The notes beneath the pieces were generated by a model. That model did no database searches. It saw only the letters and a program-made list of their open reading frames with translations, and was not told the DNA's origin. From Minisyncoccota bacterium (lineage in GTDB: Bacteria > Patescibacteriota > Minisyncoccia > Phycocordibacterales > UBA918): a stretch of DNA of 64,000 nt. The DNA is taken from NCBI GenBank assembly GCA_036275695.1, contig DASUDI010000021.1, positions 5,311 to 69,310 on the forward strand, in the 5' to 3' direction. The translations under genes and the position numbers were made by a program. Positions within the stretch are counted from its first letter, which is position 1. The number at the start of each line of letters is the position of its first letter. Below, in pieces: positions 4,278-60,622 of the stretch.

Positions 4278-4292
4278 ACGTTTATTATAATA

Positions 4293-7503: not shown

Positions 7504-7544
7504 GGTGATAACTATACAAGAAAGAATAATATTTTCTAGGGCTA

Positions 7545-8834: not shown

Positions 8835-8843
8835 GATTATTGA

Positions 8844-10199
8844 TTATTTTGTAGGAATATTCGTGCCGATAAATGAGCCAATGGTGAGCACATCTTCTGC
8901 GAAGAGTGTTTGAATCCTTGTGAGAATTTCCTTTGCGGTAATGTGTCTGAGTATATCTTCTGTTTCGTAAAAATGTTCCCACGCATCCGCACTCATATAT
9001 TCAACTAATTCTTGCGCGATACCAAGACTGCTCGAGCGAGTGATGTATTCAGCGGTAATACTGCGCGCGATAACTTTTTTGAGGTGTGGCTGTATATCAG
9101 CAATGGTGAGAGTATCCAGAATTTTTCGTATTTTCGCGTAAATTTTTTTGTGATTAGTTTTCTTAGTGAGATGCACGGTAAGCATGCCAACATTCGTATC
9201 ATATGTTGGTTCGAGCATGGTAGAGACTGCTGAGGCAAGTCCTGTATCGACAAGTTTCTTGTGTAAAATACTATCCTCTTCTCCCGCAAGAATGGTCAGC
9301 GCAGTCATAGTTTCAAACCAAGATATGTGGGGAAAGCCGTCGTGTCGAAACGCAAGAGAAAGTATATTCTTTGTAGAATTTCGTTTAATGCTCACGGTAC
9401 GCACACCTTCTTGTTTTGGCTCGTGAATTGAAAGTCTTGATATTGTTTTTGTTGAGGAAGTAAGATGGGCAAAGTGCTCAATGACCACGTGCTTCATAGT
9501 CGATTCAGAAACATCTCCAACAATGATGAGGGTGGCGTTATTGGGGACATAGTATGTATTGTAGAATTGCGTTAACTTTTCACAGGTATACGATTCTATA
9601 TCTTCACGATAACCAATAGTTTCATGTCCATACGGGTGCGTGTGGAGTGCGGTACCAACTATACCCACTGAAAGAGCAAAATCTTCATCACCCGCGTACA
9701 TATCATATTCGCTGAGTACATTTGCTCGCTCTGGAAGAAATTCAGCGTCTGTGAGCACCATGTCTCGCATGCGCTCTGCTTCAATACGAAGCGCTCGACT
9801 AAAATGGTGTTTTGGATATGAAAAATAGTAACAGGTACGATCCTTCCATGTATTTGCGTTAAGTGTGATTCCTGTTTCTCGCTCAAATTGCATTGCGCTC
9901 GAATCTATCCCCGCGTCAATGTCGTGTTTTGTGGGTTTAAAGAGCATATGTTCGAGCATGTGTGCGATTCCGGTTTCACCACGATTTTCATCACGTGAGC
10001 CGACTTTATACATAATATTTGAGGTAATGATACCTGTTTTTGGCATATGCAGAAAAAGTACTTGCAAGCCATTGGTGCTCAATGTGTATAACGAGAGTGA
10101 GCCAACACTTTTTTGTAATGACAATACTGGTTTTTTAGTACGTTTCGGATTGTTCTTTGATGTCATGAATGAAGTTTTTATATTCTGCAAATACAGCAT
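8844..10199 (-). CDS. M16 family zinc metallopeptidase (pitrilysin/insulinase-like, active subunit)
   Basis: 451 aa with the inverted zincin motif GIAHMLEHMLFKPT (HxxEH) and the downstream E of the M16 family (…RETGITLNANT…). Confidence 0.8.
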   Translation of the reverse strand: MLYLQNIKTSFMTSKNNPKRTKKPVLSLQKSVGSLSLYTLSTNGLQVLFLHMPKTGIITSNIMYKVGSRDENRGETGIAHMLEHMLFKPTKHDIDAGIDSSAMQFERETGITLNANTWKDRTCYYFSYPKHHFSRALRIEAERMRDMVLTDAEFLPERANVLSEYDMYAGDEDFALSVGIVGTALHTHPYGHETIGYREDIESYTCEKLTQFYNTYYVPNNATLIIVGDVSESTMKHVVIEHFAHLTSSTKTISRLSIHEPKQEGVRTVSIKRNSTKNILSLAFRHDGFPHISWFETMTALTILAGEEDSILHKKLVDTGLASAVSTMLEPTYDTNVGMLTVHLTKKTNHKKIYAKIRKILDTLTIADIQPHLKKVIARSITAEYITRSSSLGIAQELVEYMSADAWEHFYETEDILRHITAKEILTRIQTLFAEDVLTIGSFIGTNIPTK

Positions 10200-11783: not shown

Positions 11784-11814
11784 TTGTAAATTATACCACG
11801 AAGATATGACTTAC

Positions 11815-36387: not shown

Positions 36388-37617
36388 TTATTTTATGCGA
36401 GCACGTCTTTTCTTCCTGTGCAATGATAAGGCAAAACGATGTGACTCAGCATTTGCGAGGACGATTTGCTGCCGATATTCTTGAATTATTCTTTCATCAC
36501 CGCGTATATCTTTCGGTTTGTGGTGTTCATCTTTGACAACTCCGACGACGGGAATGACAAGTTTATTTTGCTTTAACACTGACTCAGCAATTCGTATCTG
36601 TGCAACCCCGCCATCTACCACAACTAACCCCGGATGCTCCCATTCTGTATGTTTAAAGCGACGCGTGAGTGTTTCTTTTAATGCTTGCGTGTCGTGTGAC
36701 TTCTTGACTGACTGTATGTTGAAGGCGCGATATGCTGATTGCTTGCGTTCGCCCCTATCTACGACCACCATTACTCCCGTCATGTCGTCACCCTGAAGGT
36801 GCGCGACATCAAATGCTTCAATGCGAAAGGATAACGCATCCTTATAGTCACGCAGATCGTCACGGATGAGCGCAATATCTTGAATGTGTCTCAAAGCAAA
36901 AATCCTTCGTTTAAGTTGCTGAGCCTCCTCAAACGCTTCTTTTTTTGCGGCACGCATCATGTTTCGTTCAAGTTCAGTGATAATCTGCTTCTTTTTGCCC
37001 TCAAACAGAAGTCGTATATGACGTATAGTTTGCGCATAGGCTTCACTACTTACATTTTTTGGATACAACCCAATTTGCGTATTGAAATTGAGTTTTCCCT
37101 TGTCGAGTTTCGTGGTGTGTGCTTTCGCTGATACGCTACCATCAAAAAATTGAAAGAGTTTTCGAATAATGCGCATTGCCTCCCTAAATTGCGTACCATT
37201 GGGAAATGGCCCAAATATATGGCTGTATGTGCTATCTGCATCATTGGCAAGATCTTTTCCACGCACAATGAGTACGCGAGGGAATGATTCCTTTGTAATA
37301 ACTACATGGTTGAAACTTTTGTCATCCTTTGTACGTGTGTTGTAGTGTGGCTTGTGTGTGCGTATGAGGTTTGCCTCCATAAGCATTGCTTCAAGGACGG
37401 AGTCGGTTATCTCCCATTCGACAGTACAGGCTTCACGCACCATTTTCTCAATGAGGACACTTCGTTTCTCATGTATCGAGTTGTCAAAGTAACTCCGGAT
37501 ACGTGTTCTGAGTGAAGTCGCTTTGCCAATGTATAAGATTTTTTTTTGAGTATCGAGAAAAAAGTAAACACCAGGGGCATTGGGGATTTTAAGTTTTTGA
37601 AACATTTCAAGATTCAT
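36388..37617 (-). CDS. uvrC: excinuclease ABC subunit C (compact, 409 aa)
   Basis: N-terminal GIY-YIG (…APGVYFFLDTQKKILYIGKATSLRTRIRSYF…). C-terminal UvrC endonuclease domain (…GLVVVDGGVAQIRIAE…). No room for the (HhH)2 tail. Confidence 0.8.
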   Translation of the reverse strand: MNLEMFQKLKIPNAPGVYFFLDTQKKILYIGKATSLRTRIRSYFDNSIHEKRSVLIEKMVREACTVEWEITDSVLEAMLMEANLIRTHKPHYNTRTKDDKSFNHVVITKESFPRVLIVRGKDLANDADSTYSHIFGPFPNGTQFREAMRIIRKLFQFFDGSVSAKAHTTKLDKGKLNFNTQIGLYPKNVSSEAYAQTIRHIRLLFEGKKKQIITELERNMMRAAKKEAFEEAQQLKRRIFALRHIQDIALIRDDLRDYKDALSFRIEAFDVAHLQGDDMTGVMVVVDRGERKQSAYRAFNIQSVKKSHDTQALKETLTRRFKHTEWEHPGLVVVDGGVAQIRIAESVLKQNKLVIPVVGVVKDEHHKPKDIRGDERIIQEYRQQIVLANAESHRFALSLHRKKRRARIK

Positions 37618-37635
37618 ACCACTACTATGGTTACG

Positions 37636-40272
37636 TTACAAAATGTTTTTAAGATATGTTCCTGTATGAGATTTTTGATTATGGGCAACTTCTTCGGGAG
37701 TTCCTTTTGCCACCAATGAGCCGCCACCACTCCCGCCCTCAGGACCAATATCAATGATGTAATCTGCGCACTTTATTAAATCAAGATTATGCTCAATCAC
37801 TATTACCGTGTTTCCCTTTATAACAAGTTCCTGCAATATCTCAATAAGTTTCCGCACATCTTCGTAATGAAGACCGATAGTTGGTTCATCCAGGAGATAT
37901 ATTGTTTTTTGTGTATGTGGTCGATACAATTCGGAAGCGATTTTTACACGCTGCGCCTCGCCCCCAGAGAGAGTTGTGGCGCTTTGTCCAAGCTCTAAAT
38001 ACCCAAGTCCTACATGAAGGAGCGATTGTAAGCGATCATGAATCGCGGGTACATCATTGAAAAATGCACCCGCTTCTTCAATGGTCATGTGAAGCACTTC
38101 ATCAATATTTTTGCCTTTATAATGTACTTCAAGTGTTTCTTTGGTAAACCGTTTGCCGTCACACACATCGCAGGTCACAAATACGGTGGGGAGAAAATGC
38201 ATTTCAACAGCAACTTCACCGTTTCCTTGACATGCTTCACAGCGTCCGCCTTTTACGTTAAATGAAAATCTATTTGGCTTCCAACCTCGCGCGCGTGCCT
38301 CATTTGAATGTGCGAAAAGGTCACGTATATGGGTAAACGCCCCCGTATATGTTGCGGGGTTTGAGCGTGGCGTTCTCCCAATTGGTGATTGATCGATAAG
38401 AATTTCCCTGCCAAGATATTCTGTACCGTTAAATGATGTTGCGTTGTAGGTATGTGGAGTCCTAAATTTTTTATCAAGGCGCGAACGGAGGTTACGATGT
38501 ACAATTTCATACATGAAAGTAGATTTGCCACTCCCTGAAACTCCGGTAATGGCCACGAGCCTTCCGAGAGGAATATCCACATTCATATTTTTAATATTGA
38601 ATGCCTTTCCACCTCTTACTTTGAGTGAGCCTTTTTCGCTATCACGTCTTTTCTTAGGTACCTCAATTTTTTTAGTACCACGTAGGTAATCAAGGGTACA
38701 TGAGCCAGAAGTATTTGAAGGTGCGTCGAGAAGAGGTTTTAGATATCCTGAAACAACCACTTCCCCACCATGTATACCTGCTCCTGGTCCAATATCTACA
38801 ATGTAATCAGATGCGAATATCGTATCTTCATCATGTTCCACAATAATGATACTGTTACCGAGGTCACGAAGTTCGGTGAGTGTTTTAATAAGTCGAGCAT
38901 TATCACGCTGATGTAATCCTATGGTTGGTTCATCAAGGACATACATTGCACCCACAAGCCCTGAACCAAGTTGTGAGGCGAGGCGTATACGCTGCGCCTC
39001 GCCTCCCGAGAGAGTATTTGCTCGCCGATTGAGTGTGAGATACTCAATGCCAACATTTATCATAAAATCAAGTCTCTCAATTATTTCGCGAAGAGCTGGC
39101 CACGCAATTTCCTGATCTTTTTTTGAAAGTTTGAGTGCTGAAACAAATTCTACAGCCTCCGCTATGGTCATATTAGTAAAATCAACAATATTTTTTCCAA
39201 GGTGTTTTGCGTCACCGCCAATATATACGCGAAGCGCTTCTGGTCGAAGACGAGCACCATTGCACGCAGAACAGGTGTCAGTATTAAAAATGCCTGTCGT
39301 GCCAAGTCCGTTACATTCAGAACAAGCACCGTACGGTGAATTAAATGAAAAGAGGCGTGGCTCAACTTCTGGAAACGATGAACCATCAGTTGGGCAAATA
39401 AATTTTGCTGAGAGCATACGTTCATCGCCATCCGGTGTACGCACTTTTACGAGTCCACCCGATTCACGAAGTGCTAATTCTACCGCTTCTGAAAGTCGTT
39501 CTCTTGCATTTTTGGGTGAGTGTTCAAATTCACTCACATATATTTCATCAACAAGCACGTCAATATCATGACGCTTTGTCTTAGTAAGTATAATTTTTTC
39601 ACGAAGTTGCTTTACTTCACCATCGATTCGAATAGTTTCGTATCCCTTAGAAAGCAAATCATACAATAGTTGGTAGTACTCACCTTTTCTACCAACGACA
39701 ACGGGTGAAAAGATTGAGACTCGTGCTGAACTCACTTCAACACCAAGTACATTGGTAACATCGGACTTTAATCGTTTGACTTCCCTATCTTCAATTGATT
39801 TTTGAATAATTCCGAGAATTTCGTCTTGTGATAGTTTCTGAATCGGAATATCAACGTCGAGACAGTATGGCTGACCTATGCGCGCGTATAAAATACGAAG
39901 ATAATCATATATCTCAGTAATTGTCGCAACGGTCGATCGAGGGTTGCGTGACGCTGATTTCTGATCAATTGATATTGCGGGCGAAAGTCCGCGTATCTCA
40001 TCAACATCAGGTTTCTGCATTTGCCGTAGAAACTGACGAGCATACGATGAAAGTGATTCGACATACCGTCGCTGACCTTCGGCAAAGATGGTGTCAAACG
40101 CAAGTGATGATTTGCCACTTCCAGAAAGTCCGGTAAATACCACCATCTTATTTCTTGGAATTTCTAAATCAATATTCTTTAGATTGTGGGTACGGGCTCC
40201 GCGAATCGTAATTTTTTCATCATGTGGACCATCACATGCAGCCTTATTTTTTGAGTCTTTTTTGTGCACCAT
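37636..40272 (-). CDS. uvrA: excinuclease ABC subunit A
   Basis: 878 aa. Two ABC ATPase modules ([15 protein letters not shown]… and [15 protein letters not shown]…), zinc-finger Cys clusters, LSGGEAQR signatures. Confidence 0.9.
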
Positions 40273-40312
40273 GAAGCATAGTATAGCTTAAAACCGCAAT
40301 TTAAGAAACGAG

Positions 40313-41641
40313 CTATTTAGGTAGTGTGACGACAATCTGAGTTCCAACTCCTTTGATGGACTCTACACCAATTGAACCATTCATTAGATCGATAAGTTGT
40401 TTGGTGATCCACATACCAAGTCCCGTACCCACAATTGCATCCACCTCTGTCCTACGAACTCTGAAAAAAGGTGCAAAGAGGTTCTTTTGATTTTCAGCAC
40501 TAATTCCCATTCCAGTATCCTTAACACGTAATTCAATTGATGGCCCGATATCAGAGACTTCAAGGGTAATAATACCCTTGGGTGTGTATTTAATGGCATT
40601 ACTTACAAGATTTGTAAGTGCTTGATGTAGTCGTTTACCATCAATATTAATCATGACATCACCAAAAAGTCCTTCCTTTTTAAGAGTGATGTTTTTTGCC
40701 TCAGCTTGAAATCTCATAATATCAAGTACAGCAGTAATAATAGGTTGAATATTAGTTCGCGTCGGTTGCATTTCAAGTTTGCCGGATTGTATGCGTGCAA
40801 CATCAAGCAAATCACCCACAAGGATCACCAATTGTTCTGACGAACTCTCGATGCGCTCAGCAAACTTTTTCACCTCATCAGTGGCGTCATCTTTTTGTCG
40901 AATCATACTCGCGTAACCACGCATTGAGGTAAGTGGTGCACGCAGCTCATGAGCTATCATATTAGTAAACATGTCTTTTGCGTCACTTGCTTTTTTTGTT
41001 TCCTTATAGAGATATGAGTAATCAATTAAACGAATGTGTCGCATAATTAGTACGAGGATCACAATGAGCATTGCGATAAGCCAATATACAGCCTCTATAA
41101 TTCTATTTGCAAAAAGGGTATCTATGTGACTGAGTGAGGTTTCCGTAAAAATATAGTACACATCACCCACATCAGTCCGTACGAGTCGATAACTCCTCCA
41201 ATAACGTACTCCATTTTCGGCATACGGTGTGATGATACTTTCATCTGGATGTGTGTTCGTAATTCTATAATTTGTGCTTAAAATATCACTTGTATCAGCA
41301 TCCGCATTGTGTACAATGACTTCAACATCAGGAATTCCTTCCTTTGCAACAATGAATCTTCGAATATCTGGATTTAATTTAGTAAGTGTGTCTATCTCTT
41401 GCTTAATAATTTCAGGATCAAAATTAACTGCCTCAACATATGAAGCGAATACATCATGCATGATGCCAATCCTATCCTTCTCTAAGCGCTCTTGATTTTG
41501 TCTGCCAGCGTCAAGGAATTTTTGTCCAGAAATTATGAATGCAACAGGTATCACAACGATGAGAACCATCGTCATTAACACCTGGGGGTGCTTATGGATA
41601 TACGCGTAACTACTTTTTAACGGGGTGATAAAATGCGACAT
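40313..41641 (-). CDS. two-component sensor histidine kinase (no cognate response regulator adjacent)
   Basis: 442 aa. Two TM helices flank a sensor domain of about 150 aa. HisKA H-box IAHELRAPLTSMRGY. HATPase_c N/G boxes (…LVSNAIKYTPKG…, …DTGMGIS…, …GTGLGMWI…). Confidence 0.8.
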   Translation of the reverse strand: MSHFITPLKSSYAYIHKHPQVLMTMVLIVVIPVAFIISGQKFLDAGRQNQERLEKDRIGIMHDVFASYVEAVNFDPEIIKQEIDTLTKLNPDIRRFIVAKEGIPDVEVIVHNADADTSDILSTNYRITNTHPDESIITPYAENGVRYWRSYRLVRTDVGDVYYIFTETSLSHIDTLFANRIIEAVYWLIAMLIVILVLIMRHIRLIDYSYLYKETKKASDAKDMFTNMIAHELRAPLTSMRGYASMIRQKDDATDEVKKFAERIESSSEQLVILVGDLLDVARIQSGKLEMQPTRTNIQPIITAVLDIMRFQAEAKNITLKKEGLFGDVMINIDGKRLHQALTNLVSNAIKYTPKGIITLEVSDIGPSIELRVKDTGMGISAENQKNLFAPFFRVRRTEVDAIVGTGLGMWITKQLIDLMNGSIGVESIKGVGTQIVVTLPK

Positions 41642-44424
41642 TATAGGGTAACGTTGTCAATTGGCTTGGGGAGTTTACGATTTGTCGCATACATGCCGAG
41701 AAGCATGAGAACAAGCCCCAGTGAAACTATTGAAATCGAAGCAATGAGTAAGAGCATATTTCCGGTGAGGAATGATGGCGTGAGTTCGCTAAACGAATCA
41801 TTTACAAATGGATTTGTCTGCGCAAACGCTTCAGCGGTCTTTACAAAAGGAAATGCAGCGCTTTTTGCAACAATGGCGCCAGTATTATCGGTAATACCAA
41901 CATAGATCTCATGATCACCATCTTCTATTTCTTTATCAAAAATATAACTCCAACTTCCTTCCGCGTCAGTTTTAACTGAAACTACTATTGGTGTGCTATA
42001 AATATAGAGATTGATAAAACTATGCGGTAATGCCTTGCCGGTGATAAGCGCTTTTGGAGTACCTGTCGCTGAATCTGGATGTATTGTAGAAATTGACGCA
42101 ATTGAAAGAACATCATCACGAACAATTCCTGATTCTTTTGCGGACTCATACGCAAGTAATGACTCCTGTTCTGGATTGTTTGGGTCATATCCACGCGCAA
42201 TTTCTGCACCATCAGAAAAACCATCAGTATCTGTATCGGCAACAAATGGATTTGTTTTATATAAATTAATTTCATCAAAATCTAGAATACCATCGTTGTC
42301 AGAATCAATATGTGCTCTGTTGGCGAGTCGGTCTGCGATGATGCGCTCATTGTTTTCTGCCGTGTCAAGTACGTTAAAAGTCAATTGAGATACATATGTA
42401 TTGATGGAGTCAATGAGATTCTTATCTAATAAAATCTCTGATAATTTTGAAATTGTGTCAGATTGAAAGGATTCAATTGTACTTTTAAGAGCGCGGGTCG
42501 CGTCAGTGTCATTTGTTCGTATTGCATGAGCGTATTGTGTCACATACTCATTAAGCTTATTTCTATACTCAAGAATTAGATTTTTGACCTCCGTGCTCGT
42601 ATGTGTACCTTCATCTAAGGAACTATTTAATGATTGGGTAAAATCCTCCACAGACTGTATATATGTGACTTTCTTGTCAGACACTGCAACACTCTCAGCA
42701 CCTTCGGCGTCATCTGCATCGTTCGCGGGTGAAACTGATGGTGTACTCTGAGTTGTTTTTGTAAGTTCCGCATCAACTGCTCGGTATTCTTCTATAAGTT
42801 CCTCTTGTTCAGGTGTGTACTCAATTTCAGAAACATTAAATATGCGTATACCGGTTTTATCAGAAGTATATTCTCCATACTCATTCTTAACACGTGCAAA
42901 TAGTATATATTCACCATTTGGTGAATTATTCGTATTCCACGCATATTTCCACGTTGTATCGCTAATTTTAAATGCAGTACCAATAAATATTTCACGTAAT
43001 GAGTTATTGGGTGTGTGATATAACTCAATTTTGCGCGCGAGAGGCGCGAATAACGAAATTTCTACAAAGTTTGAGAGTGGACTTTGCTTTGAAAGTGACA
43101 CACTAACTTGAGGAGTTTTTCCCTCCGTAGCAATAGTGGTTGTGGAAGAAGCAACCACAGCATCTGTAACATTATCTAAAATCTCATCAACGTTGTCTAC
43201 GGTACGAGTCACCTTGTTGCTCTCAATGATATTGTCTTGGTAATACCCTTTTGCGAAAAAGTAATACGTACCGTCATTTAGTGTTTCTGAATTTAATACA
43301 TATCGCCACTCGTCAATACTTTTCTTAATTGCATTACCTATGAGAAATTGCGTACCACTTAATTTATTAAGTGCGTAAATTGTAACCTTAGATGCATCTG
43401 TACTAGATAATAATTTCATAGACACGTCACCGCGTAGTGGAGATGGTTCATCAATGGTGAGACTAACTCGCGTCGATGTAGAAGTGTCGTTATTAGAATC
43501 TGAATCAGAAGGCGCTTGATCAAGAACACTAGCGAGCTCATTGTGAACTGTATACGTCTCGGAAAAACCTTGGTTATATGAACCAAAACTATTAGAAATA
43601 TTTACAGAAATACGATATTCCCCATTAAGGTAGTAATGTGTGTCCCAACTGATTTGCCATTCTAGATCATTTACTTTATGTGCTGTGCCGAGCGGATGAG
43701 TTGTGCTTGTGTCAATGTGCTTAGCATACACGGTAACATTTGTTGCAGAAGGTACCGTAATAATAATGGGTACGATATCATGAAGTGGCACCTGCCCATC
43801 AATTCTAATATTCGCAGAAGGTGTTTCATCAACATCAGTGAGTTCACCCGAATCTTCAGGTGATGACGTTGCTATCAGACTTGCGGTGTTCCTGTATCCA
43901 CGAGCATAATCCTCAATTTCTGAATTGTTATTGATAAAACCAAAGTGGATTGAGGTTAAAAATGCCCCTATGAGTAGGACCACCATCCCCGCGGTGCGGG
44001 AAAACTGTGAAATAGTAATATTCTGAATAACAGGAAATCGAGTGATTGAGGGGATAGAAACCCTAAATTCAGGTCGCTTCATGAGCACCCCTCCTTTCCG
44101 CGACTGACGCTTCTTTTTTGATAATAAGGTGCTGTTATGAAGTTTAGTCTCAACCACTTTCTTCGTGTTATTTGAAATTTTAACAACATGCCTCTTACCT
44201 TCAAGACGTGCGAGTGTTAATTTTTTAGGTAACTCGTTTTGATTAATCTTTGAACGTGAAGTGTGCGTGGGAGTGCGTCTCATTGTTTTTTTGAGACTTT
44301 GTGTCGGTATGACTTTGGAAGTTCGTTTAACTTCTTCACGCGACTTAATGCCGATACGCTTACGTGTCACATGCTTAGCGCTCGCGCTCGAACGAGGGAC
44401 TGCTTTGGGTGCAGGTTTTACCAT
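41641..44424 (-). CDS. hypothetical large cell-surface protein with internal repeats and Asp-rich Ca-binding-like motifs
   Basis: 927 aa. Lys/Arg-rich N-terminal ~115 aa, then a TM/signal anchor (AGMVVLLIGAFLTSIHFGF). Three similar modules (…NGEYRISVNISN…, …DGTYYFFAKGYY…, …NGEYILFARVKN…). DSDNDGILDFDE…DTDTDGFSDGAE (thrombospondin-type-3-like). C-terminal TM anchor plus a basic tail. Confidence 0.55.
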   Translation of the reverse strand: MVKPAPKAVPRSSASAKHVTRKRIGIKSREEVKRTSKVIPTQSLKKTMRRTPTHTSRSKINQNELPKKLTLARLEGKRHVVKISNNTKKVVETKLHNSTLLSKKKRQSRKGGVLMKRPEFRVSIPSITRFPVIQNITISQFSRTAGMVVLLIGAFLTSIHFGFINNNSEIEDYARGYRNTASLIATSSPEDSGELTDVDETPSANIRIDGQVPLHDIVPIIITVPSATNVTVYAKHIDTSTTHPLGTAHKVNDLEWQISWDTHYYLNGEYRISVNISNSFGSYNQGFSETYTVHNELASVLDQAPSDSDSNNDTSTSTRVSLTIDEPSPLRGDVSMKLLSSTDASKVTIYALNKLSGTQFLIGNAIKKSIDEWRYVLNSETLNDGTYYFFAKGYYQDNIIESNKVTRTVDNVDEILDNVTDAVVASSTTTIATEGKTPQVSVSLSKQSPLSNFVEISLFAPLARKIELYHTPNNSLREIFIGTAFKISDTTWKYAWNTNNSPNGEYILFARVKNEYGEYTSDKTGIRIFNVSEIEYTPEQEELIEEYRAVDAELTKTTQSTPSVSPANDADDAEGAESVAVSDKKVTYIQSVEDFTQSLNSSLDEGTHTSTEVKNLILEYRNKLNEYVTQYAHAIRTNDTDATRALKSTIESFQSDTISKLSEILLDKNLIDSINTYVSQLTFNVLDTAENNERIIADRLANRAHIDSDNDGILDFDEINLYKTNPFVADTDTDGFSDGAEIARGYDPNNPEQESLLAYESAKESGIVRDDVLSIASISTIHPDSATGTPKALITGKALPHSFINLYIYSTPIVVSVKTDAEGSWSYIFDKEIEDGDHEIYVGITDNTGAIVAKSAAFPFVKTAEAFAQTNPFVNDSFSELTPSFLTGNMLLLIASISIVSLGLVLMLLGMYATNRKLPKPIDNVTL

Positions 44425-44477
44425 ATGTGTACAGTATAAATCATAATTTTATACGTACGCGCCACACATGTCGATAA

Positions 44478-46523
44478 CTATTTTCTTGCTTTAGTTTTTT
44501 TAGTGATGCCACTCTTTTCCAATCGTTGTATCTCGTCACGTATGAGCGCTGCTGTTTCAAAATCAAGAATTTTAACTGCTTCAGCCATTTGTTGTCGTTT
44601 CTCTCGAATAGTACCTTTTGGGTCATTACGATATTGTTCTAAATCAATGGTAATCAGTGTGTCGAGAGTCTTTTCATGTTCGGACTTGATGTGTTCGGTA
44701 ATATCCTTAATTTCTTTTGAAATTGATTTTGGGGTAATGTTATGTGTCTTATTATGTGCGAGTTGGAGTGTACGCCTACGATCAGTTTCCTCAACTGCGT
44801 ATTTCAGTGAAGGTGTCATCTCATCAGCATAAAGCAACACTCTTCCATGAATATTCCGCGCCGCTCGTCCAATAGTTTGTATAAGCGCGGTCTGTGATCG
44901 CAAAAAACCCTCTTTATCAGCGTCGAGAATAGCGACAAGTGCCACTTCAGGTAAGTCAAGTCCTTCTCGCAGTAAGTTTACCCCCACAAGGCAGTCAAAA
45001 ATGCCTTTTCTAAAATCAGTCAAAATTTGTATTCGTTCGATTGTCTTTACATCACTGTGGACATACTTTGCCGAAACACCACGTTCAGTAAGAAAATCTG
45101 CAAGGTCTTCTGCCATTTGTTTTGTGAGCGTAGTCACCAAAACTCGAGCCCCAGTCTCGATGGTGGAGACTGCTTCGTCAATAAAATCCTTGATCTGTCC
45201 TTGATGTGCACCTCGCTCAGTCACGGGACGAGTTGCAATAATCGGATCAACGAGTCCGGTCGGTCGAATTATCTGTTCCACGAGATTTCCGTGCGGTGGC
45301 GCTGAGTGTTCGTATTCGTATGTGCCTGGCGTTGCGGACGTGTAAATGCATTGTCCGACACTGCGCTCAAATTCTGCGAAATTAAGTGGTCGATTATCAA
45401 GCGCGCTAGGAAGTCGGAACCCGTGTTCTATGAGGGTGAGTTTTCGAGAGCGATCACCCGCATACATACCTCCAATTTGTGGAATGGTAACATGTGACTC
45501 ATCAATAATAGTAAGAAAATCAGGTGTCCCATCAGGAAGGTGCGGAAAATATGAAAGTAATGTGAATGGCGCGTTTCCCTCTTTTCGTCCATCAAAATGT
45601 CGTGAGTAATTTTCAATGCCATTGCAATACCCAACTTCCCTAATGAGTGCTAGATCATGTTCTGTACGACGTTTCAGTCGTTGCATTTCAAGATGTTTTT
45701 CTTCTCTTTTAAATACATCAAGTTGCGTGTGAAGTTCTGCGGTAATATCAGTAATTGCGCGAGCACGTTCGTGTTCAGGTGTTACAAAGTGCTTTGCGGG
45801 AAAAAGGTAAAATACCGAAATACTACCTATAAGGACTCGAGTTAGTGCATCAATTTGTGTAATTTCAGATACCGACATTCCGTCGAAGTGCAGGCGGTAG
45901 ATTACGCGCTCATTAATGGGCATAATCTCAACAAAGTTACCCACCGCGCGGAATTGACCTGGTTTTAAATCTGCGTTCGTGCGTTCAAAATACATCTCAA
46001 CAAGCAAGCGCATAATCCCCGCCCTGTCGGTATTGAAACCTTTCTCAATCTTTTTGTGAACTTTTTCGTATTCAGTGGGTGAGCCGAGTCCGTAGATACA
46101 TGATACGGATGCGACGATGATAACGTCACGCCGTGTTAAAAGTGCTTGTGTTGAGGCATGTCGCAAACGATCAATCTCTTCATTGATCATTGCTTCCTTC
46201 TCTATATACGTGTCACTTCCCGGCATATATGCTTCCGGTTGATAGTAATCATAATAGGAGACAAAATAATGCACCGCGTTATGTGGAAAAAAGTCCTTAT
46301 ATTCTTGCGCAAGCTGAGCTGCGAGTGTCTTATTGTGCGCAATTACGAGTGTTGGTTTCTGTATGCGCGCAATAACATTTGCAGCCGTAAAAGTCTTTCC
46401 CGATCCCGTAACCCCGAGAAGTGTTTGGTGACGGACTCCTCGTTGGATTCCCGCCACCAGTGATTCAATGGCCTTGGGTTGGTCGCCCGCCGGTTGCTTT
46501 TCAGAAGAAAGTTCAAATCGCAT
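44478..46523 (-). CDS. uvrB: excinuclease ABC subunit B
   Basis: 681 aa. …LLGVTGSGKTFTAANVI… helicase motifs and a C-terminal UvrB/UvrC interaction helix. Confidence 0.9.
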   Translation of the reverse strand: MRFELSSEKQPAGDQPKAIESLVAGIQRGVRHQTLLGVTGSGKTFTAANVIARIQKPTLVIAHNKTLAAQLAQEYKDFFPHNAVHYFVSYYDYYQPEAYMPGSDTYIEKEAMINEEIDRLRHASTQALLTRRDVIIVASVSCIYGLGSPTEYEKVHKKIEKGFNTDRAGIMRLLVEMYFERTNADLKPGQFRAVGNFVEIMPINERVIYRLHFDGMSVSEITQIDALTRVLIGSISVFYLFPAKHFVTPEHERARAITDITAELHTQLDVFKREEKHLEMQRLKRRTEHDLALIREVGYCNGIENYSRHFDGRKEGNAPFTLLSYFPHLPDGTPDFLTIIDESHVTIPQIGGMYAGDRSRKLTLIEHGFRLPSALDNRPLNFAEFERSVGQCIYTSATPGTYEYEHSAPPHGNLVEQIIRPTGLVDPIIATRPVTERGAHQGQIKDFIDEAVSTIETGARVLVTTLTKQMAEDLADFLTERGVSAKYVHSDVKTIERIQILTDFRKGIFDCLVGVNLLREGLDLPEVALVAILDADKEGFLRSQTALIQTIGRAARNIHGRVLLYADEMTPSLKYAVEETDRRRTLQLAHNKTHNITPKSISKEIKDITEHIKSEHEKTLDTLITIDLEQYRNDPKGTIREKRQQMAEAVKILDFETAALIRDEIQRLEKSGITKKTKARK

Positions 46524-46571
46524 GTACTGAGTATACGCTAGTGTGAGCGTAAAGAAAAACTCTACGTTTGG

Positions 46572-50535: not shown

Positions 50536-50570
50536 ATTTTAATAGTATACTATATATCTATAATCAACAA

Positions 50571-55088: not shown

Positions 55089-58000
55089 CTAAAAAACGGG
55101 TACTGAAATGTATCGCATGTGTGCTTCGTATGTTCCCGCATCCTGCATTTGACGTACGAGTAATCTAAATACAACATCAATAAACTCGCCCACCACCGGC
55201 TGTGAACTATACCCCACCTCATCAAGTGTTGTTGTGCTCATACGTGCCCATGTATCGACTGCTGAAAACCGAGTTGAGCCACCATACAGTGTATCATCTG
55301 CAGAGTGGTAACCAAAACAACTGCGAGCACTCGCGTTACACCCTGAAGCCCATGAGGTCGGGGTACCGTTGGTACCTATGACCTGATCGATTTTTTCACC
55401 AAATGATGTGAGCATATCCCCTGAAAGAGTCGTGAAGAGTCGATATCCTGAAGTTCCATTTGTGTCAATGGTGAAACGATGTGCACCTTCAACAAACGTA
55501 TCAACAGGGACTGAACCAAATGGAATTGTGGACGGTGTTGTTGCGATATCAGTAGTGATTCCTTCAATGGTCTGTCCAGAGGATATCCCTGTCATAGTAA
55601 AGACCAGACTTGCGCCCTTGGTCAGAAGACTTGGGTACGTTTCTCCCTGCGCGAGTGGCACGACGCTATTATTAGTCGCGTCATATGCCCTAAAATAATA
55701 CACTCGATTGACGCGTGCGCCACTACTCCTCAATGTAAACGCAAACTCAGTTGCAGCATTTATTTGATGATCAAAGGTGCTTGTAGTGGTGCCACTTTCA
55801 TTATGTGTACCGCATCCGACACCAACTTGTGACACACACGCGCCCACATCAGAAAGTAATTTTGTTTGTATAGACACGTCATCTGCTCCACCCCCGTTCT
55901 CATAGCACCAGTAGGAAAGATTGGTGCATGTACCCATTTCAGATACAAAGGTCGATGTTGCAAATGTAGGTGATTCTGAAAACTGCAGACGAAATCGAAC
56001 ATTAGTCCCCACGGCACCGTTGGATTCTTGGAGCGTAAGACGCAATTGAATAGGATTATTTACATCAATGTCAATGGGAGCCACTGTTTCATTCGCAAGT
56101 GGAGTTGTGGGTGTTTCATTTTCCGCATCATCATACCATCTCCAATTTTTTGATTCTGCACCATATCCCACCGTGCGAATTGTGGGGTAATTATTATACG
56201 CAGTCAGTAGTGTTCCATTTGCTTCAGTCATCCTAAAACAGTATGACGTCCTATCAGCGGCACCATTATTTTGAATTGCCCAGTCATACTCAATATCCTG
56301 ATTGGCATTTGTTTTATATGGTGCGAGCGCGGTATTGTTTTGCTCTTCAAAGGTTCCCGCGACGTCTGAAACAGACAAAAGTAAATCACCACCCGTAGGC
56401 GGGTCTCCTGAAAGTACCGCCCCATCAGTAATCGGAGTTGAGGTACCTCTCCATAATGCGGTAGTACTCCCAATCGCACCCAGATTTTTCCACTCAGTTG
56501 TTTGAATAGCACTACACGTGGTGATTCGTGGTGCGTATTGAAGCTTAAATGCGTCGGTATTCGCAATAAGTGCCGCGGCACTTATTGCGAGTGACATGCG
56601 TAGTCGCAGTGTTCCACCATTAAGTATCGGGGTGTCGAACCCTGTCATCTCCGTATTTTCTCCAAGGTCAGTAGCACCCACTGGCCATGGATCCGTAGGT
56701 TTTAAAGCGTTGTTATTGACATAGAGTCTGTAGTAATTTTGAGATATCTTTCTACGTGCGGTTGGCCACTCAACAACCTCTGTTCTGTAATTTCTTGTGT
56801 CACCCGTATTACTCATCCATATTTCATACTGTGTCGTAGAGATAAGACGAGTCGCAATCATTGGTTCAGGCCACGATGTTCCCGTCCCCGAACTTCTGTT
56901 ATTCATAAAAATTGAAGCGATACCCACGTCATCAAGTGTTTTACCGATATTTATATTTGAAGTAAAGGGAGCCGTACCACCTGACTGCGTGCCATTTGAG
57001 CGGGTGACCACCATCGTGGTGCCCACCGTCTGAAGATTCTCAATAATCCACGCCACTGATACGTGCCCTGTTGGTGTTGTTGCCGCGCCATCTAAAAGAA
57101 ACGACACCTGTCCAACACTTGAAAGCCACACCTCGTGTCCAAAGTTTGCATGCGAATCAAGCCCTGATCCAACACGCTTTTGTGTATGCACAAAAGCTCG
57201 CGTAAGACTTCCGATTGCGGTAATTGATTCAGTTTCAGTACTTCCCGCAGATGAGTAGGTGTGTTCAGCGCGCTGAACTACCCAGTTAGAGCCGGTAAAT
57301 TCTACTACCGCGTAACTTACATACACCGCATCACTCCCCGCTTCACCGCGCGTAAATGTTGCCGTGTCAGCACCCGCGTCCCATGACGCGGTGGAAAGTA
57401 CGGTATTGTAGTCCGCTCGGCCTGAGTCAGGATTGTATTGACCAGTGACGAACACTGCCACATCAGTATCATCAGTGATACCCGCGACAGTATTTGACGT
57501 AAGCGTCGTACCTGTCGTGGTGTACGCGCGCGCTTGCTGCTGTCGCACAATGAATTCATTCTCTCCCCCGGCAGTTCCTTTGTACTCTACAATTTCCCAC
57601 GCAACTCTTGTATCACCCGAAGGAGTACCATTTCTTTGAAAAGTGATACTATTAGTGATATTTGAGGGATTGGTGATATACACCGTAACATCGTTAGCGT
57701 TCTGGTTTCCAGTCGCACCAGAATCTCCTGCGCCCGTACTATGCGTATTGGTAATGCGAATAAATGCCGAGGTCGAGGCACTCGGTGCTACATAGTCAGT
57801 CCCTGCGTTAATGGTAAGTGAGCCACCAGTAATTGTCGAAACACCTCGCTGCACTCGGAAGTCAGTGGGTAATTTAATGGTCACCTCGGGATAGACCGAG
57901 TATGCGGGGAGTGCCGTTCCTGCGTTTGTAAGACGAAAACAATAGGTGGCACCTTCCACTGATGACGCGGTTGCGTTGAGTGAGTACTCGAATTCAACGA

Positions 58001-60560
58001 ATTGAGTTTCTGAGAGAGTAATAGAACCCGTCTGAGATGTTGTTTCTCGCTGTCCTCCATTTGAGGTCACGAAGCTGGCATTTTCGTCATTCATACCTCC
58101 ACTTGATACGGTAATATTTGTGGTGTTATTGCCTTCAACAAGTTGTGACGCGGACATGTCCCACGCACCACCTCCAGTACTCACGTCACTCCACCCTGTT
58201 GCAGCACTACATGTTGAGATTTTTTGCGCAAATTCAAGGCGGTATTGGATACCTTGCGTAGTGGTGCCACCTTCATTTGATACTTGCACACGAAGTCGCT
58301 GTATATCAAGTTGTGCTACTTTGGTAAGTGGCGTATCAGCAGTACCACCCGTAGCCGAAGTCGCGCCAGACTCTGTTCCATCGTTGTTGCGCCAATGATA
58401 GTGTGTTTGCGTAGGTATACTTTTATATAGTCGCGTTACTCCTGGTACAGCAACATTTGTATTAGGTGCCACGTTGGCACCACTTGCATTAATGTGCGTA
58501 TTAGGATTAGTGATTTGTAAATCAAGTGATTGATTATTTGTAGAACTGGCGGTTATATCAAGCATTGTATATATACACGCACTCTGTGTCGAAGAAACGC
58601 TGATTGAGCCGACGAATGTAGATGTTCCTGTGGTCGAAAATCCATCAGTGTCAGTTGTACCATACTGAGATTCAGTCCCTATGTACGACTCACTCGCGCA
58701 ATTATATGGTGCAGAAGTATCATACTCATAGTACAGTTTGATATTATCGAGTCCATATACCACATCAACCGTTCCACTCGCGGTAATGGTTATACCGGAA
58801 ATGGTGTGTGGGCCAGCCGTCTGCGCCTCAATATTAAAACTACCTCCAAGGTATACATTTGAAGTGGTTATATCGATACTTGTGCGCTGTGTTCCAGCAC
58901 TGGTAACCAAGACATCCGCGGTAACAGTTGCTTCTGGGTACACCGAGTAGGTAATCTCTGATGCTGAACCAGCATCAGTAAGCCTAAAACAATAAGTCCC
59001 TCCATCGGTTGCGTTGGTAGTTGGTGAGATTGAATATTCTAATTCCGCAAACTGACTTGATGTAAGCGTGAGTCCACCCACCTGTGATGAAGTGTCCTTC
59101 ACTCCTCCATTAGGAGTGAGAAATGTTGTGTTCTCATTCGTTACTCCTCCCGTTGAAACTACTATATCGGTGGTGTCACTTCCATCGGTAATATTACTTG
59201 AATTAAACATATCCCAATCACCTCCACCCGCACCAACATCAGTCCAGCCGGACGCCGCGGAACACGTAGACACCTTTGATGCGTATTCAATGCGATATTG
59301 TTTTGAGGTCGACGTTTTATTTCCTTCGTTTGATATTTCAAAACGAAGACGTTTTCCCACGAGTTTGCCAATCGCAGAGAGGTGCGTGCTCTCAGTGCCT
59401 CCTGTTGCTGAAGTAGCTCCCGATTCACTTCCGTTATCATTACGCCAATGAAAACGCATTTGTCGCAAATCAACTTTTTGCACCGTACCTGCACCAGAAA
59501 TTGAAAGCGCTGTTGTGGGATCTATGACTGGTGAGCTTGCGGCCACAACATCAATAGACGGATTGGTCATCTGAATATCGATAGTATCACCCGCACCTGC
59601 ACTTGATTGAACATCAGCAACAACATATACGCATAACGCTTTTGTGGTGTTGATATTTATACCTGATGCGGTAAAAACGGATGAGCCGTCAGCACCACTG
59701 AATCCATCCGCATCGGTGGACCCATACTGAGACTCAGTACCCGCATAACTTTCACTTGCGCAGTTATACGGCGATGAGGTATCGTTTTCGTAGAATAATT
59801 TAATATTTTTAAGGTTTGAGGACGCGTCAATAGTACCGTGTTCATATACAGTGATTGAAGTCACATCACGGTTACTCACGGATGAGTTTTCAGTTATTGC
59901 AAAACTCCCACCAAGATGCGCGTTATTCGTTCCCGCATCAATATTTTGCATCGTGCCCTGCGTTGATACAGTGATATTAATTACTGGCGTATAGGTAACA
60001 TACGCGTAGAGTGCGTAGTTGATACAGTTGGTGGCACCTCCCGCACCGGGCTTAGTACAGGTGGTACGAACACGCAACCCGTCAAGATCAGATTGCGTGA
60101 GCGTGAGCCCCGTGAAGTTGACACTTGACCACGTGCTTACGGTACTAATAGTGACATTCTGTGTCGTGCCAATCTGGGTAGTTTCTGCGGCATTCCAAAG
60201 TGAAACCTGGAACTGCATATTTGAACCACCTTCTTTGTGATACAAAAATACGGTCACCGCGGACGCAGTCTGAACATTTGAAATCGTACCCATTTGGTAC
60301 GAATCGAGCTGATTGCGCGTGAATGTAAGATAATCACCTGTTGTACTGGGTGCTGTTGTTGAACTCACACCATCATTAACACAATCATAATTATTCGCAG
60401 TAGCACACGTTGTTCGCGCCCCCTGAGAGGTGTTTCCTGCACCATCAGGGTTTATTTGTTGCCCCAATGCCTCAGTAATAAGTGTATATATAAAAAAACC
60501 ACACAGCACAAATAGAGCAGTTATACCTGCAACGGTGACCATTTCCATGCTCTTACGCAT
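55089..60560 (-). CDS. giant (about 1820-aa) repeat-containing extracellular protein
   Basis: A single uninterrupted ORF. N-terminal signal anchor (MVTVAGITALFVLCGFFIYTLI). Ser/Thr/Gly/Asn-rich. It contains a ~355-aa tandem duplication. A …WR…YCFR[LM]T[DN]AG-type subdomain is repeated at least 4 times. Confidence 0.6.
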   Translation of the reverse strand: MRKSMEMVTVAGITALFVLCGFFIYTLITEALGQQINPDGAGNTSQGARTTCATANNYDCVNDGVSSTTAPSTTGDYLTFTRNQLDSYQMGTISNVQTASAVTVFLYHKEGGSNMQFQVSLWNAAETTQIGTTQNVTISTVSTWSSVNFTGLTLTQSDLDGLRVRTTCTKPGAGGATNCINYALYAYVTYTPVINITVSTQGTMQNIDAGTNNAHLGGSFAITENSSVSNRDVTSITVYEHGTIDASSNLKNIKLFYENDTSSPYNCASESYAGTESQYGSTDADGFSGADGSSVFTASGININTTKALCVYVVADVQSSAGAGDTIDIQMTNPSIDVVAASSPVIDPTTALSISGAGTVQKVDLRQMRFHWRNDNGSESGATSATGGTESTHLSAIGKLVGKRLRFEISNEGNKTSTSKQYRIEYASKVSTCSAASGWTDVGAGGGDWDMFNSSNITDGSDTTDIVVSTGGVTNENTTFLTPNGGVKDTSSQVGGLTLTSSQFAELEYSISPTTNATDGGTYCFRLTDAGSASEITYSVYPEATVTADVLVTSAGTQRTSIDITTSNVYLGGSFNIEAQTAGPHTISGITITASGTVDVVYGLDNIKLYYEYDTSAPYNCASESYIGTESQYGTTDTDGFSTTGTSTFVGSISVSSTQSACIYTMLDITASSTNNQSLDLQITNPNTHINASGANVAPNTNVAVPGVTRLYKSIPTQTHYHWRNNDGTESGATSATGGTADTPLTKVAQLDIQRLRVQVSNEGGTTTQGIQYRLEFAQKISTCSAATGWSDVSTGGGAWDMSASQLVEGNNTTNITVSSGGMNDENASFVTSNGGQRETTSQTGSITLSETQFVEFEYSLNATASSVEGATYCFRLTNAGTALPAYSVYPEVTIKLPTDFRVQRGVSTITGGSLTINAGTDYVAPSASTSAFIRITNTHSTGAGDSGATGNQNANDVTVYITNPSNITNSITFQRNGTPSGDTRVAWEIVEYKGTAGGENEFIVRQQQARAYTTTGTTLTSNTVAGITDDTDVAVFVTGQYNPDSGRADYNTVLSTASWDAGADTATFTRGEAGSDAVYVSYAVVEFTGSNWVVQRAEHTYSSAGSTETESITAIGSLTRAFVHTQKRVGSGLDSHANFGHEVWLSSVGQVSFLLDGAATTPTGHVSVAWIIENLQTVGTTMVVTRSNGTQSGGTAPFTSNINIGKTLDDVGIASIFMNNRSSGTGTSWPEPMIATRLISTTQYEIWMSNTGDTRNYRTEVVEWPTARRKISQNYYRLYVNNNALKPTDPWPVGATDLGENTEMTGFDTPILNGGTLRLRMSLAISAAALIANTDAFKLQYAPRITTCSAIQTTEWKNLGAIGSTTALWRGTSTPITDGAVLSGDPPTGGDLLLSVSDVAGTFEEQNNTALAPYKTNANQDIEYDWAIQNNGAADRTSYCFRMTEANGTLLTAYNNYPTIRTVGYGAESKNWRWYDDAENETPTTPLANETVAPIDIDVNNPIQLRLTLQESNGAVGTNVRFRLQFSESPTFATSTFVSEMGTCTNLSYWCYENGGGADDVSIQTKLLSDVGACVSQVGVGCGTHNESGTTTSTFDHQINAATEFAFTLRSSGARVNRVYYFRAYDATNNSVVPLAQGETYPSLLTKGASLVFTMTGISSGQTIEGITTDIATTPSTIPFGSVPVDTFVEGAHRFTIDTNGTSGYRLFTTLSGDMLTSFGEKIDQVIGTNGTPTSWASGCNASARSCFGYHSADDTLYGGSTRFSAVDTWARMSTTTLDEVGYSSQPVVGEFIDVVFRLLVRQMQDAGTYEAHMRYISVPVF
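57878..59993. repeat. intragenic tandem duplication, two copies of about 1.06 kb, inside the giant surface-protein gene
   Basis: The protein blocks …NNAHLGGSFAITENSS…YCFRLTDAGSASEITYSVYPEATV and …SNVYLGGSFNIEAQTA…YCFRLTNAGTALPAYSVYPEVTI are collinear, about 355 aa apart. Two similar antisense ORFs end about 1.05 kb apart (58398 and 59451). Confidence 0.7.
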
Positions 60561-60622
60561 ACATAAATACCTCCGAATATATCGGATACCTCTATTATGA
60601 AGCAAAACACCAGAAATGCGAC

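Follow-up and report, generated by a model that had tools for sequence, protein, structure and literature searches.

A surface protein and histidine kinase pair kept between uvrB and uvrA across a Paceibacterota lineage as a probable envelope-sensing unit

A 64,000-nucleotide stretch of DNA from a Minisyncoccota bacterium (assembly GCA_036275695.1, contig DASUDI010000021.1, positions 5,311 to 69,310 of the forward strand; hereafter the window) carries the two adjacent genes considered here. One encodes a sensor histidine kinase of 442 amino acids (aa) with HisKA and HATPase_c domains (HK; 40313..41641), and the other a 927-aa two-anchor surface protein matching the Pfam families TSP3_bac and Big_13 (SURF; 41641..44424). 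Both are located among genes of nucleotide excision repair (NER), so that uvrC, uvrA, HK, SURF and uvrB follow one another as head-to-tail open reading frames (ORFs) spanning 36388-46523 on the minus strand, where all genes and protein features of the window given below also lie. An initial annotation of the sequence had described the pair as an orphan sensor and a surface protein inserted into a repair operon, and its genes, domains and double anchor agree with the ORF coordinates and with the Pfam and NCBIfam matches. The comparisons reported here indicate that SURF-HK is probably a dedicated envelope- or surface-sensing unit, whose position between uvrB and uvrA reflects a fixed history in this Paceibacterota lineage and not a function in NER; on present evidence, no role in repair should be ascribed to the module. 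The genomes of Paceibacterota and other bacteria of the candidate phyla radiation (CPR) are very small and encode few regulators, no cultured model is available, and this module is among the few signalling systems that these bacteria have kept.

The first line of evidence comes from the conservation of the arrangement. One genome per species was scanned with the HK alignment, which yielded 17 orthologous loci (designated by L numbers where they have to be told apart) that were mapped by tblastn and contig look-ups. The order uvrB-[REC]-SURF-HK-uvrA, in which REC denotes a receiver gene present in only part of the relatives, was found in 19 of 19 complete and 4 of 4 partial orthologous loci, down to 35-39% HK identity, and these include Kaiserbacteria- and Nomurabacteria-labelled genomes as well as a closed, REC-less genome of 1.05 Mb (CP064968.1). 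The only non-identical SURF match in a word-indexed search, with 39% identity, likewise belongs to a contig with the order uvrB-SURF-HK-uvrA-uvrC; NCBI also lists an exact copy of SURF, annotated to a Candidatus Paceibacterota MAG. By comparison, any uvr gene lay within 10 kb in just 1 of the 63 unrelated HK loci obtained in the same scan. The core of the cluster is interrupted only once, by a 117-aa ORF between HK and uvrA (L090, 6754-7107). On these comparisons, the module is clade-wide and its placement within the uvr cluster is ancient, and the idea that the arrangement is atypical or inserted as a trait of this particular genome finds no support: the placement is invariant across the clade and any insertion must be old. 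The initial annotation had also considered that relatives might carry the pair at unrelated loci under promoters of its own; the pair proved to be kept at the same locus, and promoter-like boxes of its own are indeed present, as inferred from sequence. The wider order in relatives is TGT ... uvrB-[REC]-SURF-HK-uvrA ... uvrC ... Ddl, and the synteny extends to flanking genes that are unrelated to the module (AI-2E transporter, PGA_cap, FKBP, TGT ... Ddl, PCD). Therefore, positional conservation alone does not demand a functional link between the module and the uvr genes. In one relative, L010, SURF is split by a frameshift (7188-10001) and a 5' fragment of uvrB is duplicated (4147-4254).

A single locus constitutes a clear exception to the uvr context. 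In L057 (271-4443), whose HK is 31% identical to that of the window, a 601-aa SURF-like protein with Big_7, TSP3 and Big_13 domains overlaps the start of a Cache kinase. A gene for an AmiA-like N-acetylmuramoyl-L-alanine (peptidoglycan) amidase comes after the pair, and there are no uvr genes. On its opposite strand, this locus has genes for another kinase, two receivers and an Fpg DNA glycosylase.

The second line of evidence concerns the bond between SURF and HK themselves. The stop codon of SURF and the start codon of HK share one nucleotide (TAATG at 41641), and an overlap or a distance of a few bases between them is observed in the window, in 16 of 16 orthologous loci and in the distant L057. 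The abutting of genes noted in the initial annotation applies to this pair only; the spacers measure 53 nt between uvrB and SURF, 40 nt between HK and uvrA and 18 nt between uvrA and uvrC. The common direction of the cluster is uninformative: of the 51 main ORFs counted as window genes, nearly all are on the minus strand. To look for promoters, TATAAT-like hexamers ending 5-9 nt before a start codon were scored against all ATG triplets; such boxes precede 13 of the 51 window genes as compared to 3.5% of all ATG triplets (P=1.5e-8), examples being those at 4284-4289, 7511-7516, 11790-11795 and 50544-50549, together with three in the cluster. The latter are all TATACT on the minus strand, and are located 6 nt before the uvrB ATG (46530..46535), 8 nt before the SURF ATG (44433..44438) and 7 nt before the uvrA ATG within the 40-nt spacer that separates it from HK (40280..40285). 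The box upstream of SURF is a candidate leaderless-type promoter for SURF-HK, and a second consensus match is found close to it (TCGACA-17-TAAAAT at 44474-44446). Among the orthologous loci, TATAAT or TATACT occurs 4-10 nt upstream of SURF in 12 of 16, and in all 16 at 3-12 nt; a -10-like box also precedes REC in five of six loci, and HK in none of 16. In most relatives, the TATAAT/TATACT hexamer of uvrA lies about 30-55 nt upstream of the ATG and is followed by a leader hairpin (15 of the 17 HK-uvrA spacers listed); it thus behaves like part of a promoter and not like a signal for ribosome binding.

These observations argue for SURF-HK being a single transcription unit with its own promoter, and for uvrB, REC where present, SURF-HK and uvrA(-uvrC) being separate units, several of them leaderless or nearly so. 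The co-transcription with the NER genes that had been suggested initially is not favored by the boxes found 6-8 nt before the ATGs of SURF, uvrA and uvrB, of which that of SURF is conserved while HK has none. Shine-Dalgarno-like sequences are not obvious upstream of the window genes, and the pattern as a whole suggests that leaderless or near-leaderless transcription is widespread in this genome; literature searches returned nothing relevant on leaderless transcription in Patescibacteria. A generic scan for sigma-70 promoters and terminators gave no enrichment over shuffled sequences.

At the protein level, HK displays a compact layout. A first transmembrane helix (TM1, residues ~21-39) is followed by an extracytoplasmic domain (residues 41-183; 41093..41521), a second helix (TM2, ~181-200), a linker of about 20 residues, the DHp domain (residues 222-287; 40781..40978; Pfam HisKA 1.9e-17) and the catalytic HATPase_c domain (residues 334-441; 40319..40642; Pfam 8.5e-25). 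No Pfam match to HAMP or PAS was obtained between TM2 and DHp. The phospho-acceptor His231 (40949-40951) is part of an H-box, HELRAPLT, that is invariant in 25 HK orthologues, as are N344 and N348 of the N box, D375-x-G377-x-G379 of G1 and G407-x-G409 of G2 in the orthologues. With both a phospho-acceptor DHp and an ATP-binding domain, HK falls by domain content into class I (HisKA). The family includes more than 120 orthologous clusters with 53-76% full-length identity, and the conservation also covers the sensor domain. A model of the latter built from 24 orthologues (predicted local distance difference test, pLDDT, 89; predicted template-modelling score, pTM, 0.82) has the topology long helix, helix, two strands, helix, three strands, helix, and its top structural match is the extracellular domain of Staphylococcus aureus WalK (PDB 4ywz), at 12% sequence identity. 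According to the model, the sensor is a single Cache/PDC fold closest to that of WalK. The paper describing 4ywz (PMC4802049) is flagged as retracted; only its coordinates were used, and its functional claims were set aside. Regarding the start of the protein, public gene calls place it 22 codons downstream (420 aa; the difference corresponds to 41576-41641 of the window, minus strand, and to 8569-8634 of L002). Residues 6-22 align with relatives, and the alignment assigns the conserved start to the 442-aa form that overlaps the SURF stop codon and not to the public 420-aa form.

The layout of SURF was derived from a 13-member alignment, hydropathy and an AlphaFold model; the full-length model was built from two sequences, and its secondary structure alone was used. 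The N-terminus is not a signal peptide and consists of a 140-residue Lys/Arg-rich tail (44005..44424; 38 K+R and 6 D+E, modelled as disordered coil) followed by a first transmembrane segment (TM1, residues 141-165; 43930..44004), which is supported by hydropathy and a model helix and has a conserved juxtamembrane (L)SPFRFP and invariant G146 and G153. By the positive-inside rule, the tail would be cytoplasmic. In 13 of 13 orthologues the frame is open for 90-145 codons before TM1, with a net charge of +15 to +32; six of the 13 have no internal Met, and the histone-H1-like, Lys-rich composition is kept in every one at a sequence identity of 14.5%. Since the frame is open in all orthologues, six of them lack an internal Met and a -10 box precedes the upstream ATG, the tail is concluded to be translated. 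The initial annotation had been right in pointing to a basic N-terminal tail, whose length up to TM1 is ~140 aa rather than ~115. The alternative start at MKRPEFRV, which had been put forward in case the extension was not conserved, was rejected given the conserved upstream frame and the -10 box before the upstream ATG. It might be speculated that the tail binds a polyanion such as DNA, RNA or acidic lipid.

The portion of SURF outside the membrane is modular. Three Big_7-like immunoglobulin (Ig) modules (residues 201-530; 42835..43824), each with a W..W.T...(P)NG.Y signature and separated by Ser/Thr-rich linkers, show beta-sandwich secondary structure at about 205-293, 321-409 and 441-528 with block-mean pLDDT values of ~53-78. 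Big_7 matches are obtained in 8 of 13 orthologues, and these distal modules retain 25-36% identity. Next to them there is a helical region (residues 531-700; 42325..42834; 20% identity) for which the model predicts long helices at 609-706. Two TSP3 repeats with putative Ca2+ sites come afterwards (residues 701-752; 42169..42324; 54% identity; TSP3_bac 2.5e-8 and 34 bits against a cut-off of 25, in 11 of 13 orthologues), and their invariant residues are D707, D709, D711, D715, D717 and E718 in one repeat and D730, D732, D734, D738 and E741 in the other. A conserved neck, YESPKE.G.VR.D (41% identity), connects them to a Big_13 Ig-like domain (residues 777-866; 41827..42096; 1e-8 and 36 bits against a cut-off of 27), which is present in 13 of 13 orthologues and is the most conserved part of SURF, with 67% identity over 791-866. 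The protein ends with TM2 (residues 885-913; 41686..41772; 50% identity; hydropathy and model) and a short basic C-terminal tail. By Pfam thresholds, SURF is a TSP3-repeat/Big_13 surface protein whose Ca2+ binding is putative. The three Ig-like modules described initially were borne out by the beta-sandwich structure and the Big_7 matches, and the inventory has to be completed with the fourth Ig-like domain, Big_13, and the helical region of ~170 aa. A sortase-type (LPXTG) C-terminal anchor was discarded, as neither the motif nor a sorting-signal model of NCBIfam was matched. A conserved P-S-[LF] a few residues before TM2 and a G-L-H at its cytoplasmic end (41686-41790, residues ~879-913) match no known sorting signal in NCBIfam.

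Overall, SURF orthologues are 25-39% identical to the window protein. An exhaustive search recovered 939 clusters at 50% identity (E<=1e-30); most of the best 150 are full-length (~800-1050 aa), and the minority that are shorter are probably truncated. Apart from its Ig and TSP3 domains, SURF has no match in Pfam or NCBIfam, and no PDB chain matches its profile at E<=0.01. The family, about 940 clusters in size, is annotated only as 'Ig-like domain-containing protein'. The conservation is unevenly distributed, and the membrane-proximal part of SURF is as strongly conserved as the HK sensor. The overlap or near-abutment of the two genes, their single promoter, their survival as a pair in L057 and this membrane-proximal constraint point to SURF being an accessory co-sensor of HK, with the variable outer Ig modules likely touching the surroundings or a host cell. 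A link to the cell envelope is hinted at by the WalK-like sensor and by the amidase encoded next to the pair in L057.

Regarding the partner of the kinase, tblastn detected no receiver in the window, in line with the initial annotation: the best E-value of five canonical queries was 0.3, and four locus-specific queries gave no match at E<=1. The same queries recovered every receiver in other loci at E<1e-9. That the kinase is an orphan by nature is not supported, as the gene of a stand-alone receiver lies between uvrB and SURF in many relatives. In L010, L013, L014 and L016 this REC gene encodes a receiver-only protein of 119-122 aa with an acidic pocket (D9, D10), a phospho-acceptor (D52), S82 and K104, and with no output or DNA-binding domain. 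A search with these sequences leads to a large family of ~120-aa proteins, five members of which were looked up blind to their context, four chosen for their long contigs and one (P0190) a 137-aa variant on a 25-kb contig. All five were found in a uvrB-REC-SURF-HK-uvrA context, which places the REC family at this locus in nine of nine contexts. The REC family is tied to the uvrB-SURF-HK-uvrA locus. In L089 (2137-2883) two REC genes stand in tandem.

In the clade to which the window belongs (window, L001, L006-L009, L011, L019 and L088), REC is missing both from the locus and from the 10 kb around it. In a neighbour-joining tree of HK, this REC-less clade is sister to a mostly REC-bearing one, each of them internally coherent; L017 and L020 also lack REC, so that the gene may have been either lost or gained. 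Partner specificity of histidine kinases is usually set by the DHp positions H+7, H+11 and H+12, as established in work on EnvZ/OmpR. These positions are identical in HK of the REC-bearing and REC-less clades, which suggests that REC-less kinases still dock the same kind of receiver.

These elements can be assembled into a tentative mechanism. SURF-HK would be transcribed from its own promoter just upstream of SURF, and the mRNA would probably have a very short leader or none. Translation of HK may be coupled to termination of SURF through the TAATG overlap, an arrangement that would favor the assembly of both proteins side by side. SURF would span the membrane twice and expose some 720 residues to the outside, with the distal Ig modules evolving fast, and the block formed by TSP3, Big_13 and TM2 would, judging from the pattern of conservation, be the part that most likely touches HK at its Cache sensor and TM helices. 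A surface signal, such as the state of the wall, Ca2+ or contact with a host cell, may then alter autophosphorylation of HK at His231. The phosphate would be passed to a stand-alone receiver lacking a DNA-binding domain, encoded between uvrB and SURF in many relatives; since REC has no output domain, the output would proceed through protein-protein contacts or a relay. In the clade of the window, whose locus has no receiver gene, a partner encoded elsewhere may serve the kinase, or the original one may have been replaced. If SURF is indeed the co-sensor of a WalK-like kinase, the lineage may well rely on this pair as its principal sensor of the envelope or of host contact, and co-folding, metatranscriptomics and heterologous assays would have a well-defined object. 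For the clade as a whole, the unvarying place between uvrB and uvrA also makes a convenient genomic landmark.

The theme behind the module, a kinase plus an accessory membrane protein, is known from other systems. In the MtrA/MtrB/LpqB cluster of Actinobacteria, conserved clade-wide, a DNA-binding regulator (MtrA) and a sensor kinase (MtrB) are encoded with an extracytoplasmic partner, the lipoprotein LpqB, which is thought to modulate the kinase. The MtrB model does match the HK core (7.9e-35), but with 121 bits against a cut-off of 450; the gene order differs, and SURF lacks any family match beyond Ig and TSP3. Likeness to WalK (YycG) of Bacillota is found at several levels: its model ranks third among the NCBIfam models for the HK core (1.9e-48), HK has an extracytoplasmic Cache/PAS-like domain between two TM helices, and the location of the L057 pair beside a peptidoglycan amidase recalls the cell-wall theme of WalRK. 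WalK is modulated by YycH and YycI (PMC7355866), which resemble SURF in being membrane-anchored extracytoplasmic accessory proteins encoded in the same unit as the kinase. However, HK lacks HAMP and a cytoplasmic PAS, and scores 165.5 bits with the HK_WalK model (NF033092) against a cut-off of 725, matching its kinase core only. The partner in relatives is a stand-alone receiver and not an OmpR-type regulator like WalR, and SURF differs from YycH/YycI in its upstream gene position, its 927 aa, its two anchors and its Ig/TSP3 composition, with no YycH/YycI-like relationship detected in Pfam, NCBIfam or PDB. HK is an ordinary member of the HisKA class, WalK-like at the level of the sensor, that fails the tests for a WalK orthologue. 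With its acidic pocket, D52, S82 and K104 in ~120 residues free of an output domain, the REC of relatives is reminiscent of CheY, DivK and Spo0F, yet no chemotaxis, cell-cycle or phosphorelay partners lie near the locus and the receiver is absent from the window. What appears to be new is the combination of a receiver-only protein, a polybasic-tailed two-anchor Ig/TSP3 protein and a Cache kinase of minimal layout, all fixed in place between uvrB and uvrA; literature searches found no described kinase-uvr cluster in CPR bacteria or Paceibacteria.

The most serious challenge to envelope sensing as the function of the pair comes from its neighbours. In such a scenario REC-SURF-HK would sense a surface or environmental cue, for instance damage by light or oxidation, contact with a host or uptake of DNA, and tune the activity or expression of UvrA/UvrB, the position being selected, either through binding of the stand-alone receiver to a Uvr protein or through the SURF basic tail bringing DNA to the membrane. 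It would explain why the placement is invariant in 23 of 23 orthologous loci and more stable than the adjacency of uvrA and uvrC, and why uvr genes are so rare around unrelated HK. In addition, a receiver without a DNA-binding output domain must act on protein, and the histone-H1-like tail is present in every orthologue. The absence of terminator-like sites at the gene junctions of the cluster is also in its favor. However, a separate conserved -10 element precedes each of SURF, REC, uvrA and uvrB, the leader hairpin that precedes uvrA in relatives is shared with no other gene of the cluster, L057 keeps SURF-HK beside a cell-wall amidase in the absence of uvr genes, and the synteny includes unrelated housekeeping genes throughout the region. 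No DNA-repair domain was found in HK or SURF with Pfam or NCBIfam. Literature searches provided no precedent, and we know of none for a surface-sensing system coupled to excision repair. Taken together, a coupling to NER is considered unlikely, and its concrete version, in which the receiver phosphorylated by HK acts on UvrA/UvrB or the SURF tail tethers DNA at the membrane under selection for the placement, very unlikely; if true, surface or host contact, or envelope damage, would tune excision repair in reduced-genome bacteria. A lead on heliorhodopsin and light sensing (PMC8612252) was dropped, as the paper mentions no uvr genes. It should also be acknowledged that several observations weigh against an envelope-sensing unit whose position is mere history. 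The placement between uvrB and uvrA holds while the interval of the functionally linked uvrA and uvrC (gaps of 0.4-2.2 kb, or uvrC missing) and the TGT-uvrB junction (interrupted by HD_4 or a Y1 transposase) break in many relatives, which goes further than we would expect of neutral synteny and leaves room for a tie to NER. Without terminators between the genes, read-through from uvrB into SURF-HK-uvrA is possible, and the promoters are inferred from hexamers only. The full-length SURF model is poor (pLDDT 43). Finally, the receiver was not found at the locus or within 10 kb in the window clade, which makes the output path a proposal in this case.

Two further explanations separate the pair from each other or from its site. 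SURF could be an adhesin or an S-layer-like host-attachment protein and HK an unrelated neighbour, adjacent to it through genome compactness, as could be expected from the adhesin-type Big_7, Big_13 and TSP3 domains, the fast evolution of the distal modules and the tight gene packing throughout the window. This appears quite unlikely: in 16 of 16 loci the two genes overlap or nearly abut and HK has no promoter-like box, the pair persists in L057 when every other neighbour has changed, and the membrane-proximal part of SURF is as conserved as the HK sensor. A recent arrival of the module in this genome, as a genomic island or by horizontal transfer into a uvrBA operon, might be proposed from the slight dip in GC content (0.38-0.40 across SURF and HK vs 0.41-0.46 in the flanks) and from the plausibility of an ancestral uvrBA pair. 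In the uvrBA operon of Bacillus subtilis and other bacteria, uvrA follows uvrB in a common orientation. The window shares this order, with 4.2 kb of signalling genes between the two and a -10-like box before each of them; the uvrBA pair is likely the ancestral state that received the module. Nonetheless, every relative examined shows the same arrangement with SURF at only 25-39% identity, so that any insertion predates the clade; the HK tree separates the REC-less window clade coherently from its mostly REC-bearing sister, and the borders of the module are free of mobile-element genes, repeats and tRNA. Clade-wide conservation effectively excludes a recent event, to which hardly any credence can be given.

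The leader of uvrA deserves separate mention. In most relatives it consists of the -10 box, 12-17 nt, a 7-bp stem with a 6-nt CNCCAW loop, 8-15 nt and the ATG (for example L006:11359-11384, L019:11366-11391 and L088:11418-11443, with 12 further loci). Pairing is kept in 99% of the cells of the alignment, compensatory double changes affect 7 of 7 pairs, and 0 of 500 shuffles reach the observed value. A covariance model of the hairpin finds matches upstream of uvrA only and before no other gene, and there is no match in Rfam, which makes it a candidate new cis-regulatory RNA of uvrA. It was not found in the window (spacer 40273-40312), before other window genes or in L001; by comparison with their relatives, the window and L001 have lost it.

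The repair genes flanking the module are otherwise recognizable. Upstream of it, uvrB (44478..46523) encodes 681 aa matching NF003673 (945 bits) and the Pfam families ResIII, UvrB_inter, Helicase_C, UvrB and UVR. Downstream, uvrA (37636..40272) encodes 878 aa (NF001503, 1243 bits) as compared to ~940 in the model; Pfam UvrA_DNA-bind, the insertion domain, has no match at E<=0.01 and residue 330 is aligned to position 405 of the NCBIfam model, which suggests that the insertion domain is reduced. The short uvrC (36388..37617) encodes 409 aa with the Pfam domains GIY-YIG, UVR and UvrC_RNaseH_dom, and ends once the RNaseH-like domain is complete, the C-terminal helix-hairpin-helix region being absent (TIGR00194, 269 bits vs a cut-off of 285). 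UvrC is equally short in relatives (404-411 aa), and this is therefore a feature of the clade and not a truncation. At 10 kb from the module, an 1838-aa ORF with a TTG start (55089-60605, minus strand) may encode another large surface protein.

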